DNA of 64,000 bases, from contig OZ242351.1 in assembly GCA_965208675.1 (NCBI GenBank), forward strand, positions 2,656,001-2,720,000. The letters are read 5' to 3'. A program made the translations under genes and the position numbers. This document shows, piece after piece, positions 43,015 through 52,281 of this stretch (within the stretch, counting starts at the first letter, position 1; the number at the start of each line of letters is the position of its first letter). The DNA is from Candidatus Poribacteria bacterium. GTDB taxonomy: Bacteria; Poribacteria; WGA-4E; PCPOR2b. The notes beneath the pieces were generated by a model. It was not told the DNA's origin. It made no database searches and saw only the letters and a program-made list of their open reading frames with translations.

Positions 43015-44085
43015 CTAGCCACTGGACACTGATGTCAATCTGATCCGGTATTTCGATGCAACGGCTTGGATTGCCGTCCATGAGCTGTCATCGATAAAGA
43101 TGCCCTCTTGACGGTGTCTATTTTTCTCTCGAATCCCGCGCTCGCCGGGAATGAGAATCTCCTCAACACCGGGTGATTTCTTTGCAGATTTTACATATGC
43201 AATAAAGCGATTAACCTCCTCGTTGAAATCGGAGACATCCGCGAAGCTAGCGATATTGATTGCCAAAACGAATAAACCGTTGCCGACTCTCGCCTCACCA
43301 TCTCGGCTGCAACCTGCACCGGTCAATGCGCCCGATAGAATGTCTATGACAAAACTCAGTCCGAACCCTTTGTGCGCGGTAATTCCTCCGAAAGGGAGCA
43401 ATGCGCCGGGCAGCACCCCATAAAAATCATCAACGTCGTTTGTCGGATTGCCTTCAGCATTGATAAGCCAGCCATCCGGAACGGTTTCTTGCCGGTTCTT
43501 TTTCAGCCTTATCTTCCCGGAAGCGGCAACGCTAGTTGACATATCCAAAAGAACCGGTTCACGCCCTTCGACGGGAATTGCACAAGCAATCGGATTGGTC
43601 GAAAGCCTGCCCTCAATGCCTCCGAACGGGGCTACACATGGGCCGCCGCCGTGGTCGTTCACAGTCAAAACACAGATCATGTGCTGTTCTGCGGCTTTCA
43701 AAGCGTAACCTCCCAATCTGCCCACTTCATTGCAGCGGAGGGTAACGACAGAACTGATGTCCTGGTCTTTTGCTTTTTGCACAGCTAACTCCACCGCACG
43801 AGTTGCGATTACAGGGCCAAACCCCCAGTTGCCATTTAGAACGGCCGTCGATGGAGACTCTCGCCTGATCTCAATATCCGCCTTCGGCTGGATTAAGGAA
43901 GCCTCTATTTCTTGGATATATTTCGTCAGGTGAATGACACCGTGCGAATGGTGTCCAACCAGATTGGCATCAACCATTGAACGCGTTACCACTTCTGACT
44001 CAGCATCTGGGACACCGGCAGCACGAAAAACCTTCAGGCACATCTGCGTTAAGGTCTCTGGTGAGAAAATTGGCATGGTGCACAT
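43015..44085 (-). CDS. Ldh_2-family (malate/L-lactate/ureidoglycolate-type) dehydrogenase
   Basis: GHHSHG, TNPIA, LDMSTS, LLPFGG..HKGFGL, IPGE. Confidence 0.9.
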   Translation of the reverse strand: MCTMPIFSPETLTQMCLKVFRAAGVPDAESEVVTRSMVDANLVGHHSHGVIHLTKYIQEIEASLIQPKADIEIRRESPSTAVLNGNWGFGPVIATRAVELAVQKAKDQDISSVVTLRCNEVGRLGGYALKAAEQHMICVLTVNDHGGGPCVAPFGGIEGRLSTNPIACAIPVEGREPVLLDMSTSVAASGKIRLKKNRQETVPDGWLINAEGNPTNDVDDFYGVLPGALLPFGGITAHKGFGLSFVIDILSGALTGAGCSRDGEARVGNGLFVLAINIASFADVSDFNEEVNRFIAYVKSAKKSPGVEEILIPGERGIREKNRHRQEGIFIDDSSWTAIQAVASKYRIRLTSVSSG

Positions 44086-44123
44086 TCTCTGTAGCTTGAG
44101 CGATTTCGATTGCTTGCACTATT

Positions 44124-44966
44124 TCACGAATCAAGTTGATTCGGTGTTTCGATCGGCAAATCCAGCCGATCCCCCCACTCTTTCCACGACCCGATGTAGT
44201 TGCTGACCCTTGGATAGCCCAATAACCTCAGCGCCAGATAGCCGTGGGAAGAACGGTAACCGCCCTGTCAGTAGCACATCACCCGCTTTTCAGGCGTAAT
44301 ACCTGCGGCACGGTACATGGCTTGCAACTCATCCGCCGGTCTGAACGCCCCATCCTTGTCCAGATTGTTTAGCCATTCGATGTGAACCGACCCAGGAATT
44401 GCACCGCCGCGCGCAGCTCTAGCGTTTTGTCCATAGTGTTCATCGCCCGTACGGGTATCAAGCACGGCGAAATCACTCTGATTCAACTGGTCGAGAATGC
44501 CGGCTGTTCCTATATGCAAGTCTGCTTGAGGATTAATCGGAAATGGAGGAACTTCATCCGGTAATGTAGCCCCAAAGCTCACACCTCCCAACGCGGTTAT
44601 CCAGGCATTGTAACCCCCATCTAATACCCGGACGTTATCATGTCCAAAATACTCACAGAACCAGAAGCCCCGCGCAGCGCGGACACCTGAGATATTCTCA
44701 TACCAGACTATAGTTTTTCTGGAATCAACACCGCGTGCACTAAAGAGATGGGCAATCGTCCACATAAACGCATTAAACGGGGTTTCGCTCGTATCATTGA
44801 GACTAATCCCGTACAAATCTAGATGGATTGCATTCGGAATACGTCCTATAACATATTCATGTGTCGGACGCGTATCCACAATGCAGATGTCTGTATCATC
44901 AACTCTGCTTTTCAACTCCTCGGCGGATATCAACAACTGCGGATTAATATACCCTTTGCCGTTCAT
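44124..44966 (-). CDS. tandem-domain rhodanese/sulfurtransferase, probable selenoprotein (in-frame TGA at the catalytic position)
   Basis: GRIPNA, LDGG, GAIPGS. Reading through the TGA at 44270-44268 gives [41 protein letters not shown], which completes the rhodanese fold. Confidence 0.88.
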
Positions 44967-46252
44967 CCAATCCTCCCAACTCCACCCATGTAAGGTTTAA
45001 GAACTTCTGGAATGCGGATGCTTCCATCCGCTTGTTGATAATTCTCAAGTATCGCGATAACCACTCGCGGCAACGCAAGCCCGGAAGCGTTAAGCGTATG
45101 CACAAATTCCGGTTTTGCGCCGGGTTCACGGCGAAAACGGATATTTGCACGGCGCGCCTGAAAATCCTCAAAGTTGCTGCACGAAGAAATCTCTAGAAAT
45201 TTCTGCTCTGCGGCGGTCCAGACCTCTACATCATAGCATTTTGCGGCAGCGAACCCAAGATCTGCCGTACAGAGGGTGACAACGCGGTAAGGCAGACCGA
45301 GGGCTTGTACAACATCTTCAGCGTTGGTTAGTAAGCGTTCGTGTTCGTCGTAGGAGGTCTCAGGGAGCGTAAATTTTACCATTTCGACTTTATCAAACTG
45401 GTGGACGCGGACTAAGCCTCGCGTGTCGCGGCCGTAAGAACCGGCCTCGCGCCGAAAACAGGGCGTATATGCGGTGTAGTTGATTGGGAGATTTCTACCA
45501 TCCAAGTATTCACCAGCGAAAATGTTTGTGACGGGAACTTCAGCCGTTGGAATGAGAAAGAGATCGCCGCTCTCATTTTCTTCATCGCGGTCGCATCGAT
45601 ACATATCTTCTTCGAATTTAGGCAACTGCCCCGTGCCGGTCATTGTAGGACGGTTAGCGACAAAAGGCGGAGAGACTTCGGTATATCCGTGTTGGGACAC
45701 ATGCAGGTCGAGCATGAAGTTAATCAGCGCACGCTCTAGCTTCGCCCCTATCCCTTTAAACAGCACGAAGTTACTGCCCGCAACCTTTGCGCCGCGCTTA
45801 AAATCGATGATATCCAACGCTTCTGCAAGTTCCCAATGCGGCTTGGGTTCAAAATCGAAAGTCGGCAGGCCGCCCCATCGTTTGACCTCAATATTATCCG
45901 CTTCGCTGTTGCCGGCCGGCGTACTTGAATGGGGCATGTTTGGGAGGTTAATCAAAATTTCATCCACTTCACTCTTTTTTACTTGCGCATTCTCATTCAG
46001 CTCTCTGATTTTCTGAGAAACCTGCCTCATCTCAACAATCTGTTCAGACGCATCACCCTTAGTTTTCTTGAGTTCGGCAATTTTCTTGGATACCGAATTT
46101 TGATAGCTTCTGAGCGACTCAGCTTCGCCCATCAACTCGCGCCATCTGCGGTCGGAATTGATGAGTTGATCCAACGGTGCGTCCATTCTGCGCTGCTCTA
46201 GCATCGTTCGCACTGTGTCGGGATTATCTCGAATAAACTTGAGATCTAACAC
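44963..46252 (-). CDS. serS: seryl-tRNA synthetase
   Basis: [57 protein letters not shown]. Confidence 0.98.
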
Positions 46253-46290
46253 GAAAACTCTCCCCCTTCTCCCGATCTATAGATATGAAA

Positions 46291-46323
46291 AAACCACAGG
46301 TTGCTTGAAGACAGCCTGTGGTT
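46291..46323 (-). terminator. hairpin/terminator downstream of the tRNA pair
   Basis: AACCACAGGTTG...CAGCCTGTGGTT followed by a T run on the minus strand. Confidence 0.65.
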
Positions 46324-46346
46324 AGGATACGAAGTAATATTTAAGC

Positions 46347-46425
46347 TGGCGGGCTCGACGGGATTTGAACCCGCGATCTTCTGCGTGACAGGCAGATGTG
46401 TTCGACCAAGCTACACCACGAGCCC
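46347..46425 (-). tRNA. tRNA-Asp (GTC)
   Basis: GGGCTCG acceptor stem, anticodon arm TCTGC-CTGTCAC-GCAGA, TTCAAAT T-loop, encoded CCA. Confidence 0.95.
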
Positions 46426-46443
46426 GATAAGTCAACCACTGGT

Positions 46444-46520
46444 TGGTAGGCGGGACAGGGTTCGAACCTGTGACCTACGGCTTGTAAGGCCGTCACTCTA
46501 GCCAACTGAGCTACCCGCCC
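46444..46520 (-). tRNA. tRNA-Val (TAC)
   Basis: GGGCGGG acceptor, anticodon arm ACGGC-CTTACAA-GCCGT, TTCGAAC T-loop, encoded CCA. Confidence 0.95.
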
Positions 46521-46551
46521 AAACTTCATTTCCGCTTTTTGACGAGACTAA

Positions 46552-46580
46552 AGTATAAATCATAAATGCAACATTGTCAA
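46552..46580 (-). promoter_or_regulatory. sigma70 promoter of the tRNA operon
   Basis: Minus strand TTGACA-17 nt-TATACT. Confidence 0.75.
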
Positions 46581-46647
46581 GTGAAAGCTGCGATTTTCAT
46601 CTGCCGCATACGGTGCAGTATTTTTCCTTCATATGTTTGGATATGCG

Positions 46648-49600
46648 TTAACCGAAAAGCACTTTGTGCAAAAATCGCCCGGTGTGTGAAGGAGGCACCG
46701 CCGCCACGTCCTCCGGCGTCCCCATAGCGACAACCTCCCCGCCTTCATCGCCGCCATCGGGGCCAAGATCAATAACCCAATCCGCGCACTTAATCACGTC
46801 CAGATTGTGCTCAATCACGATTATTGTGTTGCCTTTGTCCACAAGCCGATTCAGCACAACCAACAATTTTTGCACGTCATCGAAGTGCAAACCGGTAGTG
46901 GGTTCGTCCATGATATAGATGGTTCTGCCGGTGCTCCGTTTGGCGAGTTCGCGCGCCAACTTGACACGCTGCGATTCGCCGCCCGACAGCGTCGTTGCAG
47001 ACTGTCCGAGTTCAATGTAATCTAACCCAACGTCATACAGCATCTGCAATCCCTTGCGGATGCTGGGCACGTTGTAGAAATGATCCAATGCCTCTTTCAC
47101 CGTCATCGCCAAAATTTCGGCAACGTTTTTGCCTTTGTAGCGGACTTGAAGCGTCTCGCTATTATACCCGGTTCCGCCGCACGTTTCGCATTTTACCCAG
47201 ACATCCGCGAGAAAGTGCATCTCGATTTTGTTATAACCGTGCCCGTGACACGTTTCGCACTGTCCGCTTTTCTGGTTAAAACTGAATCGGCGTGTACCGA
47301 AGCCGCGTATTTTGGCATCGGGCAGATCGGCAAACAGATATCGAATTTTAGTAAAAAGGTCGGTATAAGTGGCAGGATTGGAACGCGGGGTCTCTCCAAT
47401 TGGCTGCTGATCAATGTGGATTACCTTGTCTAGAAAATCCATGCCGCGAATCTGCTTAAACTTTCCAGCTTTTGCAATCTGTGTCCGATTCAAACTACCG
47501 GCGAGCGCTGGGTAGAGCGTCTCTTCGACAAGAGAACTCTTTCCTGAACCTGAAACCCCTGTCACACATGTGAGCGTCCCGAGCGGAATTTTGACATCAA
47601 TGCCGTTTAGGTTATTAATTCGGACATTGAAAAGCTCAAGCCGCTCTCCTTTGCCCGCACGCCTTTCCGTCGGGATTTCGATTTTTTGCGCGCCGACTAG
47701 ATAACGGCCTGTAATCGATTTTTCGTTGCCCTGAATTTCAGTTGGCGAACCGACAGCCACGATTTCGCCGCCCAATTTTCCAGCGTTCGGACCAAAGTCG
47801 AGAATATGATCCGATGTCAACATTGTCTCCGAGTCGTGTTCGATGACGAGTACGCTGTTGCCCAAGTCCCGAAGGCGTTTTAACGCGTTCAATAGCCGCT
47901 CGTTATCCTTCTGATGCAACCCGATCGTGGGTTCATCAAGAATATACATCACCCCCGTCAATCCGCTGCCGAGCTGGCTTGCCAAGCGAATACGCTGCAT
48001 CTCCCCTCCTGAAAGCGACGGCGCAGGACGGCTTAAGGTCAAATAGTGCAGTCCGATGTCCGCGAGGAATTGAAGCCGATTCTGGATTTCTCTGAGAAGA
48101 TCACGGGCGATTTTCTCCTGATGCGGCGGCAAATTCAAGCTTAAGAAAAATTCAATTGAATCTCGAATTAACATCGCGGTGACTTCCGCGATAGTTTTGC
48201 CATTCACGGTCACAAAACGCGCCAGCGGTTCAATGCGTGTTCCTTCACACTCTTTACAAACGGCGCCTGCGCGCCATATTATACTGCCAATGCCTTCACA
48301 TCGTTTACACTGTCCTAGAGGACTGTTAAATGAAAAGTGGCGCGGCGTGAGTTCAGGAAAACTCAACCCGCAGGGGACACAAGCAAAATGCTCGCTGAAA
48401 ATATGATGCCCAACACGCCGCCGCTTTGCGCGTTGGCTGCCCTTCTTGTCTCTCTCGTCCATTTCCCTGATTGCTACGACGCCGCCGCTCTCACGTGTGG
48501 CAGTCTCGACAGCTTCGGCAAGCCGACTGCGCGCATCGGGTTCAATGGCTAGGCGATCAACGACAATTTTGACATCGTGCTTAATGCTCTTGCCAATCTG
48601 AGGCGCCTGATCGATGTTGTAAATCTCGCCATCAATCTCAACGCGAACATATCCATCGCGCTGCGCGCGCCGAAAGGCATCCGGATAATCCTCGTTACTC
48701 CGCAAACTCAACGGAAACAAAACATACAATCGCGTTCCGGCGGGCAACGTCATAATTTTTTCCACAATTTGTTGCACCGATTGGGCGCCGACTTCCCGCC
48801 GACACTGGGGACAATGCGGTATCCCGATTCGGGCGTAGAGCACGCGCAGGTAGTCGTAAATCTCCGTGACCGTTCCGACCGTTGACCGCGGATTGTTGCT
48901 AGGCGCCTTCTGCTCAATTGCAATCGCGGGTGAAAGCCCTTCAATTTTCTCAAACTTCGGCTTATCCAACTGTCCCAAAAACTGCCGTGCATAGGTTGAA
49001 AGGGATTCAACGTATCGGCGTTGCCCCTCCGCGTAGATGGTATCTAGCGCCAAGGACGACTTTCCGGAACCGCTCACGCCGGTGAATGTAGTGAGCTTCC
49101 TGTGCGGGATTTCCGCATCTACATTTTTAAGGTTATGCTCCCGCGCGCCGCGCACGGAAATGTACCGAAGATTTTCGGGTTTTACAGCGCTTTCGGTCAA
49201 GTAGATTTCATCTGACTCATGGATTTCGCTGGAAGATTCCGCCGGCAAACGCGACGGATTGGAGTACGTGGCTTCTGAATGATTGCTATCGTACATCCTT
49301 CCATTGTTTCTCTCATCCAAGACGGGTTTCAACGCTCGACCTGTATACGACATCTCCACCTCCCCCACCTCTTCGGGCGTCCCGGCTGCCACGACATATC
49401 CGCCTTCCTCGCCGCCTTCAGGTCCGAGATCGATGAGATAATCCGCCGTTTTAACCACTTCAAGATTATGTTCAATCACGACAATGGTGTTGCCGGCATC
49501 TACCAACTGATGTAAGACTTCTAACAATTTCTTCACATCATCGAAGTGCAACCCTGTTGTCGGCTCATCGAGAATATAGAGCGTTTTGCCCGTACTCCGT

Positions 49601-52281
49601 TTAGCTAGTTCGCGCGCCAACTTAATCCGCTGCGCCTCTCCACCCGAAAGCGTCGGCGCGGGCTGCCCGAGCTTGATGTAATCTAAACCAACATCGTGTA
49701 GAGTCTGCAGTATTTTCGAAATTGTCGGAACATTGGAGAAGTGCTCCAAAGCCTCCTGGACATCCATCTGCAAGACCTCGGCGATGTTCTTCCCCCGGTA
49801 TTCGACCTGCAGCGTTTCATCATTATAGCGTTTCCCTTGGCAAACGTTGCACTTGACCCAAACATCGGCAAGAAAGTGCATCTCAATCCGCCGCGATCCA
49901 TTGCCTTGACAGGTTTCACACCGTCCGCCTTTAACATTAAAGCTAAATCGCCCCTGCTTATAACCGCGTATATTCGACTCGGTCATTTGGGCGTAAAGCG
50001 CTCGAATGTGATCGAAAACTTTCGTGTAGGTAGCCGGATTCGATCTCGGTGTCCGTCCGATTGGCGCCTGATCGATGTCGATGATTTTGTCAATTACGGA
50101 TTGTACGTTGCGTAATTCATGCCGGGTAGTGCAATTGGTCTCATTTCGACTTACACTCTCTTCTTTCCGCTCACTCCCTCGGTCTATTTCCTCATCGTTT
50201 TCCATCGCCCCGTTTTTTTGATGCGGCTCCTTAACGATGAGCGCTCGAATTTCTTCGTACTCCCCCGGCTGTTCATGCGCTTTCATCAAATCGCGGGCAA
50301 GTGCTTTGTATAGAATATCGGTGATGAGTGAACTCTTGCCGGAACCGCTGACGCCGGTCACACATGTAAAGGCACCTATTGGGATACGGACACTGATGTG
50401 TTTTAGGTTGTGGTGGTGCGCACCGTAAATCTCAAGCCAGTTGCCGTTAACATCGCGGCGACTTGCGGGAATCTCAATTTGCTGTTCCCCCCGCATATAT
50501 TTCGCGGTGATCGAGTTTGCATGTTCAGCGACTTCGCGGGGCGGTCCAATCCCTGCAATCTTCCCGCCTTGAATCCCCGGGCCCGGCCCGAAGTCTACTA
50601 TCATGTCCGCGGCCCACATTGTATCGGCGTCATGTTCGACAACAATCACGGTGTTACCCATATCACGTAAATGCTTCAGTGTCGAAAGTAGGTGGGCGTT
50701 ATCGCGTGGATGCAATCCGATGCTTGGTTCATCAAGTACATACAGCACGCCGCGCAGTCCGGCTCCAATTTGGCTCGCTAACCGGATCCGCTGCGATTCT
50801 CCCCCTGAGAGCGTCGGCGCCGTGCGATTCAAAGTAAGGTAATGCAGCCCGACGTTCATGAGAAACCAGAGACGCCCTTTTATTTCTTTCAGCAGGTCCG
50901 TTGCGATGAAGGCTTCGCGTTCTGACAGTTGTAGTTTGTCGAAGAATTCACGGCAGTCGCCGACCGTCATCTCAATCACATCAAATATCGATTTTTCAGC
51001 AATTGTCACAGATTTGACTTCTAGCTTGAGTCGTTTACCCTCGCAATCCGGACATACGCTAGTAACCATAAATTTTGAAAGATACCGTTTGTGCATCTCC
51101 GAATTTGTTTGAAAATACTTTCGCTCCTCAAGGGGGATGACTCCCTCGAACGGCATCTCGTACCGATGACGCCGCCGCCGGCGTGTGCGGTAAACGAAGG
51201 GGATTTTTTCTCCATCCGTGCCATAGAGGATAATTTGCTGCTGCGCGTCGGTCAACTCATTCCACGGGGTATCCAAGCTAAAACCGAAGTGCGACGCCAA
51301 ACCTAAGGCGATGTGTTGAGTGTTTAAAGCCTCAAGTTCGCCCCAAAAGACCACCGCCCCCTCTTCGATTGACTTAGTTACGTCCGGTACGACCAAATCG
51401 GGAGAGATTTCAGTTTTCGTGCCCAGCCCTTTGCACGTCGGACACATCCCTGCCGGACTGTTGAAGGAAAACTGGCGCGGCGCAGGCGGTTCATAACTGA
51501 TATTGCAGTGGACGCATGTATAGTCCTTACTATAGAGGAGGTCGCCGGCGTTAGGCTGCCCTTCAACGATGTTGACAATTAATCGTCCTTCACCCATTCG
51601 CAAGGCGGTTTCAACAGTTTCTGCAACACGGCTGCGGATATCGGGTTTGATTACGATGCGGTCAACTACAATCTCAATATCGTGGCGTTGGTTGCGATCC
51701 AACTGAATCTCGTCCATCAAGTCATAAACCTCGCCATCGATTCGGGCGCGGACAAATCCCGCCTTGAGTGCGTCGGCGAGGTCTTCACGGTATTCCCCTT
51801 TTCGTCCGCTGACGATTGGCGCAAGCACCAATATGCGCGTTTGCTCCGGCAAATTCACAATTCCATCTATTATTGCTTCTGTAGTCTGGGCCCCCACAGC
51901 GCTTCCGCATTTTAAACAGTGCTTTACACCCACACGCGCAAACAGCACGCGGAAGTAGTCGTAAATTTCAGTGATGGTGGCGACGGTTGAACGTGGGTTG
52001 TTGCCGGCAGACTTTTGGTCAATCGAGATGGACGGGGATAATCCGCCGATGAAATCGACATCGGGTTTTTCCAGTTGACCGAGAAATTGGCGGGCATAAG
52101 CGGAAAGCGATTCGATATAGCGGCGTTGCCCTTCAGCGTAGAGCGTGTCGAACGCCAACGATGACTTGCCAGAACCGCTTACGCCGGTGAAGGTGATGAG
52201 TTTGTCCTTCGGCAGCTTGAGGTTGATGTTCTTTAAGTTATGTTCGCGAGCACCGCGGATATCAATGAACTCGTCCGCCAT
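46648..52281 (-). CDS. uvrA: excinuclease ABC subunit A, double-length (two fused UvrA units)
   Basis: Four GVSGSGKSS Walker A motifs, four LSGGE signatures, two GAREHNLKN unit starts; 1877 aa. Confidence 0.97.

Follow-up and report, generated by a model that had tools for sequence, protein, structure and literature searches.

A selenoprotein family of rhodanese-related sulfurtransferases (COG2897/cd01449) was predicted, according to the parts of the sources consulted here, from the Sargasso Sea with three sequences (PMC1088965), from GOS (PMC2398784) and from Olavius symbionts (PMC1976440), and is listed in review tables (PMC9312934, PMC13188914). For a member from the Sargasso Sea, a predicted SECIS is placed downstream of the UGA (PMC1088965). 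NCBIfam describes, in the portion of the entry consulted, rhodanese_LYCAU (NF041203), a single-domain model of 126 positions with a CxU motif. The bacterial SECIS (bSECIS) model, in the consulted part of its description, has a loop of 3-9 nt, an upper stem of 4-16 bp, a UGA-to-loop distance of 16-37 nt and a G in the first or second loop position, which is often followed by G or U, and some bSECIS elements do not fit this model (PMC13188914). A search of the literature, judged mostly by titles and abstracts, gave no natural precedent for a bacterial SECIS that acts over a long range or from a distal site, and no description of Poribacteria with selenocysteine (Sec). In the work of Su, Li and Gladyshev, Nucleic Acids Res 2005, an engineered E. 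coli 3'-UTR SECIS located far from the UGA reportedly works when RNA pairing brings the SECIS near.

In this study, we analysed a window of 64,000 nt, which is the whole stretch from position 2,656,001 to 2,720,000 of contig OZ242351.1 of a Candidatus Poribacteria bacterium (GCA_965208675.1). The organism that carries the rhodanese gene is a sponge symbiont. The features of the locus are listed in Table 1. With translation table 11, the open reading frame is called from 44966 to 44268 on the minus strand and stops at the TGA 44270..44268 in the context VMCY-TGA-QGGYRSS. As the original prediction had stated, the frame stays open for 47 further codons (234-280), which include YIGSWKEWG, until the TGA at 44126..44124. 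The read-through product consists of two tandem rhodanese domains (Pfam PF00581, two stretches, E 3.8e-36). Its best solved relatives, RhdA of A. vinelandii (PDB 1e0c; E 4e-36, residues 10-273 aligned) and the Thermus rhodanese (PDB 1uar; E 1.2e-35, residues 5-273 aligned), have the same two-domain fold, and U233 is aligned with the catalytic Cys in the six-residue loop of RhdA. RhdA differs in having Cys instead of Sec and the loop Q-T-H-H-R-S instead of Q-G-G-Y-R-S. The 3-mercaptopyruvate sulfurtransferase model NF008557 gives 104.7 bits, below its cut-off of 250. Like NF041203 the protein is a rhodanese-domain selenoprotein; it is not a member of that family, since its score of 36.6 bits is below the cut-off of 115. 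It shares with the COG2897/cd01449 family, as far as the consulted descriptions go, the two-domain architecture, a UGA at the catalytic Cys, the motif U-x-x-G (here U-Q-G-G) and many Cys homologues. Placed by these features and the published descriptions, the poribacterial rhodanese is a further member of the selenoprotein family predicted in 2005. In an Rfam scan of 43900-46600, two tRNAs were the sole matches.

Table 1. Features of the rhodanese locus, in coordinates of the window; (-) denotes the minus strand.
Feature	Position	Description
Rhodanese-type sulfurtransferase gene	44124..44966 (-)	Two domains, 280 aa, predicted Sec at residue 233
Sec codon UGA	44268..44270 (-)	Catalytic Cys position, active-site loop U-Q-G-G-Y-R-S
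True rhodanese stop TGA	44124..44126 (-)	Orthologues stop at the same point with TGA, TAA or TAG
serS (seryl-tRNA synthetase)	44963..46252 (-)	TIGR00414, 547 bits
Long-range helix, 5' arm	44245..44256 (-)	From the third base of Tyr237 up to the second base of codon 241; begins 11 nt downstream of the UGA
Long-range helix, 3' arm	44175..44186 (-)	Codons W261 K262 E263 W264
Distal hairpin	44151..44171 (-)	7-bp stem, 7-nt loop 44164..44158; candidate SelB-binding part of the SECIS
Proximal hairpin	44248..44269 (-)	GA of the UGA, then 7-bp stem and 3-nt loop; AGGGCGG-TTA-CCGTTCT = 44266..44250

In the order-level set, a TGA occupies the catalytic column in 36 of 40 loci, namely those of the genome itself and of 35 relatives. 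Four relatives, all of family f4, have TGC or TGT there, and one relative has no orthologue. The TGA was also found in 80 of 80 further Poribacteria loci. Across the phylum, 155 of 176 genomes have an orthologue, with one TGA in 150 of the 150 matches listed. All 83 full-length database homologues carry Cys at this column. TGA and Cys thus share one column, in agreement with the RhdA alignment and with the earlier claim that the TGA falls at the catalytic Cys of the rhodanese loop. The 44-47 codons downstream of the TGA are nearly invariant as protein in the order-level set, and on the basis of these alignments they are shown to be under purifying selection. Positions 44268-44270 are covered by contigs from four runs of four studies, for which no difference is listed there; diverged strains differ at 44253, 44283 and 44286. 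Since the contigs of all four studies keep the codon unchanged, the TGA is not an assembly error. The genome contains selA, selB, selC and selD. Its tRNA-Sec gene, with a score of 77.5 bits (cut-off 47), is adjoined by selB and selA; SelD is itself of the Sec type, with one in-frame TGA in its gene, and at least seven further candidate selenoprotein genes contain a TGA. Together, the conserved TGA, its pairing with Cys, the conserved downstream part and the complete machinery bear out the proposed Sec-type rhodanese, and judged from sequence the gene is a genuine selenoprotein gene, in which the catalytic Cys is predicted to be replaced by UGA-encoded Sec.

Downstream of the UGA, we observed a long-range helix and, 3 nt after it, a distal hairpin. 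In 90 distinct Poribacteria sequences the helix is paired to 98.6% and the distal hairpin to 99.4%. Helix pair 27-102 is C-G in 70 of these sequences, U-A in 15 and U-G in five, with no C-A, and distal pair 111-127 is C-G in 58 and U-A in 32, with none broken. No shuffle out of 500 matched the observed pair counts, and slid controls paired at 33-48%. In the Poribacteria set, codons 232-240 and 266-273 have a codon entropy of about 0.25, compared with a gene mean of 0.72. RNAalifold, run without a preset structure on the longer alignment, returned the long-range helix and the distal hairpin and did not return the hairpin that directly follows the UGA. A second weak hairpin (columns 37-40 with 61-64), which RNAalifold gave on a short alignment, was lost on the longer one, and hairpins picked by eye near columns 33-54 were not conserved.

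The same elements were examined in an independent set of 70 distinct metagenome sequences, 66 of which are not Poribacteria-like. The search pattern fixed columns 10-26 and 94-105, so that helix pairs 24-105, 25-104 and 26-103 are imposed in this set; the distal hairpin lies outside the pattern. It is paired to 98.8%, with compensatory changes at three pairs. Codon 268 is CTG, CAG or CCG here; it varies freely at the second base and is fixed at the other two. Helix pair 27-102 again covaries (C-G 62, U-A 8), as does pair 30-99 (C-G 47, U-A 17, U-G 4, other 2), and breaks at the upper three helix pairs occur in 5 to 23 of the 70 sequences. The distal loop reads N-G-G-A-N-Y-U, and its GGA is invariant in both sets. 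Each of the 160 distinct Sec-form sequences that were examined contains the helix and the distal hairpin. In the four Cys forms, a contrast that within Poribacteria amounts to one split, the distal hairpin is absent in every case (3-5 of 7 pairs) and the helix is interrupted. The Cys forms still pair at 8-9 of 11 helix positions, and part of the helix pairing is therefore a by-product of protein motifs. A tblastn search against plasmids gave no match to further Cys-form DNA. Tree-based sign tests of covariation on the Poribacteria tree were not significant because there are too few independent events; pair 111-127, for example, underwent two changes. The single-sequence fold is only modestly better than that of shuffles (z = -1.57; 13/200). 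A genome-wide search with the distal hairpin core gave one other match (C1:3898841), which is a coding coincidence in the dinucleotide-binding motif GGGTAGFAAG with no upstream TGA, and looser patterns of the distal loop yielded no in-frame TGA in the genome.

In its own dimensions the distal hairpin resembles a bSECIS, as far as the consulted description of the model goes: stem and loop lie within the modelled sizes, and G occupies loop positions 2 and 3. In contrast to the modelled 16-37 nt, its loop is 103 nt away from the UGA in the linear sequence, and 21 nt away only if the 82 nt closed off by the helix are skipped. The minimum-free-energy hairpins of four other selenoprotein genes of the genome have loops that start 17-24 nt after the UGA; among the seven comparison hairpins, three were chosen by eye and not by the minimum-free-energy fold. 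The start of the long-range helix corresponds to that of the minimal element (nt 15-31) in the E. coli fdhF-type SECIS, according to the consulted part of that study (PMC8659212). Compared with the engineered 3'-UTR SECIS, which is a laboratory construct, the structure described here is natural, sits inside the coding sequence and is conserved, with covarying pairs.

It is tempting to regard helix and distal hairpin as one discontinuous SECIS, and we consider it likely that the gene encodes an RhdA/thiosulfate-sulfurtransferase-like Sec rhodanese whose UGA is recoded by this split signal. The helix would join the Y-R-S-S codons to the W-K-E-W codons, closing off 82 nt of coding RNA. The GGA loop of the distal 7-bp hairpin would then come to lie at the spacing of ordinary SECIS hairpins in the same genome, and SelB with Sec-tRNA(Sec) would be recruited by the discontinuous SECIS and not by the proximal hairpin. 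In the protein, the selenolate would potentially accept sulfane sulfur as a Se-S intermediate and pass it on to an acceptor, as suggested by rhodanese chemistry.

The hairpin directly after the TGA, to which the original prediction had drawn attention, is present, and could itself be the functional SECIS, with the downstream structures being incidental or serving another role. It is fully paired in 72 of the 90 Poribacteria sequences (97.8% of cells pair), its stem and loop (7-9 bp, 3 nt) have bSECIS dimensions, RNAalifold chooses it when given only 84 nt, and a position right behind the UGA is normal for SECIS elements of bacteria, as stated in the consulted part of PMC13188914. However, the start of its loop lies 8 nt downstream of the UGA, outside the 16-37 nt given there, and in 88 of 90 sequences neither of the first two loop positions is a G (loops AUA, CUA, UUA). 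None of its pairs is compensatory, pair 18-26 is broken in 13 of the 90 sequences, and of the 70 metagenome sequences 49 have a broken pair 14-30 and 36 a broken pair 15-29. The stretch that forms its 3' arm also provides the 5' arm of the long-range helix, and column 30 covaries with column 99 of that helix. With the UGA in the A site, moreover, the proximal hairpin would fall inside the mRNA channel, according to general ribosome footprints. On its own the hairpin does not exceed chance: the fold of the 86 nt that follow the TGA is equalled by 176 of 200 shuffled sequences (z = +1.18). The longer CCGT/ACGG stem suggested as an alternative, fully formed in only two of 90 related sequences, was dropped as a conserved element. 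A proximal SECIS is thus quite improbable; the hairpin exists at the predicted place, is not the conserved element and is probably an alternative fold. Helix and distal hairpin might, on the other hand, be a conserved mRNA structure that serves something other than Sec insertion, for instance the stability of the mRNA, a pause of the ribosome or the binding of another factor, with Sec being inserted by a weak or unrecognised signal. The distance of the distal hairpin from the UGA speaks for this, as it is beyond every bacterial SECIS geometry described in the consulted part of PMC13188914. Against it stand the presence of the structure in every Sec form examined and its absence from the four Cys forms, its persistence whichever gene follows downstream, the agreement of stem, loop and G-G with the bSECIS model as consulted, and the canonical spacing once the helix is skipped. 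We consider such a role unlikely. The distal hairpin is also not a terminator, since no T-run follows it and a terminator scan gave no site.

Two further explanations concern the gene itself and its neighbour. In gene calls and public protein sets the protein finishes at residue 231-234, as in 37 of the 120 best database hits, which would fit a TGA that is a nonsense mutation or assembly error in a decaying pseudogene. This reading is already refuted by the same TGA in well over 100 species-level genomes and in the contigs of four studies, by the near-invariant downstream codons and by the complete Sec machinery, and carries practically no weight. A functional tie of the rhodanese to serS and Sec synthesis, through selenium delivery or feedback, was proposed as a possibility for this gene, whose start overlaps the serS stop. 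SerRS charges tRNA-Sec, and rhodanese can carry selenium in vitro. The overlap was recovered as ATGA at 44966..44963 and occurs in all four genomes of the genus; in family f3, serS lies about 80 nt upstream and is adjacent in five of five genomes examined. However, the overlap was not seen outside the genus in the loci examined, serS is 2.7-16 kb from the rhodanese in most genomes of family f1, and in the six genomes of family f2 examined it is not near the rhodanese (on other contigs in five, about 142 kb away in one). The upstream neighbour in 80 further loci is MatE in 53, serS in six and another gene in 21, one Cys form (G036) adjoins serS as well, and the rhodanese gene does not lie near selD, selA or selB. 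None of the results bore on selenium delivery or feedback. The proposed tie is thus very unlikely, and as a general feature a link to serS or Sec synthesis does not hold up. The overlap is a lineage-specific gene order, local to a single genus, where it may provide co-expression, and the system does not require it.

Since public protein sets cut the rhodanese at residue 231-234, catalogues of sponge symbionts under-count selenoproteomes. It is somewhat more likely than not that the Sec-rhodanese genes of many lineages, namely Poribacteria and at least 66 other metagenome sequences, use a natural discontinuous SECIS, with the SelB-binding hairpin about 100 nt downstream and a helix that restores the distance. 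If this is true, a hairpin immediately behind the UGA would not be a strict requirement for bacterial Sec insertion, and SECIS-based gene finders would pick the wrong element in the Sec-rhodanese family. The spacing rule of SelB becomes directly testable here by synonymous and compensatory mutations. If the split signal is real, it would be a naturally occurring exception to the rule by which the SECIS of bacteria lies right after the UGA, and would show how a recoding signal can be shifted away from an active-site loop with unchangeable codons.

The rhodanese ORF overlaps serS on the minus strand, ATGA being common to the serS stop (TGA) and the rhodanese start, and was called as ending at a TGA. 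The original prediction placed this codon at the catalytic Cys of a frame that stays open, and both points hold. The read-through product contains two rhodanese domains, and the TGA column is that of the catalytic Cys of A. vinelandii RhdA (PDB 1e0c, E 4e-36). The genome, one 4.89-Mb contig, has selA, selB, selC and selD: the tRNA-Sec scores 77.5 bits (cut-off 47), selB and selA directly adjoin its gene, and selD carries an in-frame TGA of its own. In the order-level set of 40 loci (own genome and 39 relatives), TGA is found at the shared column in 36 and TGC or TGT in four, every one of family f4; one further relative lacks an orthologue. All 80 loci kept from a species-genome scan (the best 80 of 332 confirmed relatives; nearly all titled Candidatus Poribacteria, a few only 'uncultured bacterium') have TGA. 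A phylum survey detected the orthologue in 155 of 176 genomes, all within one order, with one TGA in each of the 150 matches listed; the six remaining matches must belong to the six f4 genomes, and the four of these checked are Cys forms. Cys was present at the UGA column in 83/83 full-length database homologues, confirming the predicted Cys/TGA pairing, and among the 120 best database hits 37 proteins end early, at 231-234 aa. Neither a nonsense mutation nor an error can account for the TGA, which is conserved across relatives, is covered without difference by contigs assembled from four runs, each of a different study (strains with nearby changes included), and is followed by 44-47 codons whose protein sequence is almost invariant among order-level relatives. 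The conserved UGA and the complete Sec machinery thus argue for the proposed Sec-type rhodanese. Judged by sequence, this is a real selenoprotein gene, and its product is a member of a selenoprotein family predicted in 2005 and included in reviews. Membership in NF041203 and in the 3-MST equivalog was rejected.

Features in the window and, where a genome (G000, own; others, relatives) or locus (L) is named, elsewhere
Feature	Location	Strand	Remarks
serS	46252..44963	-	TIGR00414, 547 bits
Rhodanese ORF as called	ends at TGA 44270..44268	-	232 aa
Rhodanese gene read through	to TGA 44126..44124	-	+47 codons, 280-aa product
Distal hairpin	44171..44151	-	second block, 7-bp stem, 7-nt loop
Long-range helix	44256..44245 with 44186..44175	-	columns 24-35 with 94-105
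Stretch of raised contig depth	44147..44201		
Ldh_2 gene	43015..44085	-	malate/L-lactate dehydrogenase family 2
tRNA-Val, tRNA-Asp	46287..46580	-	upstream of serS
Promoter-like site	46580..46552	-	strong, 11/12
GC-rich hairpin and T-run	~46322..46287	-	after tRNA-Asp, by eye
UvrA-like ORF	46648..52281	-	1877 aa
At least seven further genes with a single in-frame TGA within a Pfam/NCBIfam match	G000:C1:1464681-1465049(-), 4351412-4351753(+), 4575962-4576351(+), 150211-150594(+), 2150501-2150695(-), 2490796-2491011(+), 4649539-4650462(-)		four AhpC-TSA/Prx-type, one CMD/AhpD-type, one Rdx/SelW-type, selD
Second rhodanese	G000:C1:2991323-2992153	+	two-domain
Loci with divergent serS-like match	L027 (G008:C328:4018-4884); G005:C1:6391838-6392707		39-41% identity
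Extra gene in genus g5	L068:9-1154		E 1.1e-5

When 89 distinct Sec-form genes are aligned by codon, synonymous conservation is extreme in two blocks, one surrounding the UGA (codons 232-240) and one towards the 3' end (codons 266-273), each with a normalised codon entropy of ~0.25 vs a gene mean of 0.72. The distal hairpin has its Arg, Leu and Pro codons as CGG, CTG and CCG in 89/89 genes, and covariation links the third base of its Asp codon to the first base of the Ile/Val codon. In alignment A2 (90 distinct 150-nt stretches from 116 Sec-form loci), hairpin pair 111-127 is C-G in 58, U-A in 32 and never broken. Pair 27-102 of the long-range helix, formed across 75 nt by two synonymous third positions, is C-G in 70, U-A in 15, U-G in 5 and C-A in none. 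Pairing holds in 98.9% of cells, against only 33-48% for slid partners, and the observed compensatory counts were reached by 0/500 shuffles. RNAalifold without imposed structure returned the same helix and hairpin and not the proximal hairpin directly after the UGA; both elements also form when the window's own 123 nt are folded by minimum free energy (z = -1.57). Contig depth rises several-fold over the helix arm and distal hairpin in all four runs, and contigs with different flanks share the stretch; this ultra-conserved segment is common to other organisms of the same samples.

An independent metagenome set was obtained with a pattern (U-QGGYR, 60-72 nt, WKEW) that leaves the distal hairpin outside. 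It matched 115 stretches, of which 80 were fetched, 78 were long enough and 70 were distinct over 150 nt. Outside the structure columns, 66 of the 70 share only 70-80% identity with Poribacteria, so these come from other lineages. Here the distal hairpin is 98.8% paired, with compensatory changes at 111-127 (U-A 60, C-G 10), 112-126 (C-G 65, A-U 4, broken 1) and 109-129. Codon 268 is CTG in 41, CAG in 28 and CCG in one; the amino-acid-deciding base is free and the two bases of the RNA structure are fixed. The loop reads N-G-G-A-N-Y-U with GGA invariant. Helix pairs 27-102 (C-G 62, U-A 8) and 30-99 (C-G 47, U-A 17, U-G 4, other 2) also covary, with columns 10-26 and 94-105 fixed by the search pattern itself, and the topmost three pairs of the helix are weak in this set.

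The proximal hairpin of the original prediction is present in the sequence, but folding of the 86 nt past the TGA is no better than that of shuffled sequences (z = +1.18). As a conserved element it fails: its pairs 14-30 and 15-29 are lost in 49/70 and 36/70 metagenome sequences, it shows no compensatory pair, and the covariation partner of column 30 is column 99, not column 14. The helix is partly imposed by protein motifs, since 8-9 of 11 helix positions remain paired in the Cys forms. In the four Cys forms the helix has interior mismatches and 3-5 of 7 hairpin positions pair. At residue 268, Cys-form proteins have A, L, T, H, E, D, P, V, M, R or S and Sec forms L/Q; residues 239-240 are mostly A/S in the former and S-S in the latter. 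Within Poribacteria, Sec and Cys forms are separated by one split only, and independent events are few (pair 111-127 changed twice on the tree; sign tests not significant). The two-part RNA structure is conserved and specific to Sec forms.

A functional link to serS had also been proposed and was not borne out. The ATGA overlap occurs in 4/4 genomes of the genus, and serS lies ~80 nt upstream in family f3 (5/5 genomes examined), 23 nt upstream of the Cys form in one f4 genome, and, in most of family f1, 2.7-16 kb upstream in the same orientation. In six f2 genomes examined, it is on another contig in five and ~142 kb off in one. In the 80 further loci, the gene lying upstream within 1.6 kb in the same orientation encodes a MatE transporter in 53 cases, is serS in 6 and is another gene in 21; downstream genes likewise vary. 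The adjacency to serS is an old local synteny, often broken and with no tie to Sec, and any coupling is probably incidental. The Ldh_2 gene follows the rhodanese only within the genus (4/4). From the promoter-like site and the hairpin with T-run past tRNA-Asp, serS would probably have its own transcription start. The UvrA-like ORF resembles two complete UvrA fused head to tail, the set of ABC ATPase and zinc-finger motifs occurring twice in its translation. Two relatives have a divergent sole serS-like match; in G008, a divergent serS-like gene lies directly upstream of the Sec-rhodanese. Genus g5 has extra genes between serS and the rhodanese, one of which matches the Shedu SduA C-terminal domain weakly, below the cut-off (E 1.1e-5, 26.1 bits vs 27).

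Clear minimum-free-energy hairpins are found in four other selenoprotein genes of this genome, their loops beginning 17-24 nt past the UGA; three more comparison hairpins were chosen by eye. No conventional hairpin was found at 17-24 nt in the rhodanese gene. Its spacing is 11 nt from UGA to helix, 3 nt from helix to hairpin and 7 nt of stem, summing to 21 nt when the 82 nt that the helix encloses are left out. The bSECIS consensus model of the 2026 review has 16-37 nt to the loop, a 3-9-nt loop, a 4-16-bp stem and a G early in the loop, and some elements fall outside it (PMC13188914). The minimal E. coli element starts 11 nt past the UGA (PMC8659212), and the long-range helix starts at the same distance. 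Recoding is probably directed by a discontinuous SECIS of an unusual kind. SelB would bind the distal hairpin, and the helix would hold it at the mRNA channel entrance with the UGA in the A site; the proximal hairpin, sharing its 3' arm with the helix, would be an alternative fold, melted at that moment. No natural bacterial split SECIS is described in the titles and abstracts found. The nearest precedent is a SECIS engineered into a 3' UTR in E. coli, which reportedly works far from the UGA when RNA pairing brings it close.

The second rhodanese has no stop codon, is 32% identical, is kept in nearly all relatives and is presumably an ordinary Cys-type paralogue. The ordinary rhodanese reaction proceeds through a Cys persulfide, which in the Sec enzyme would be replaced by a Se-S intermediate. 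The selenoproteome of this symbiont is sizeable.
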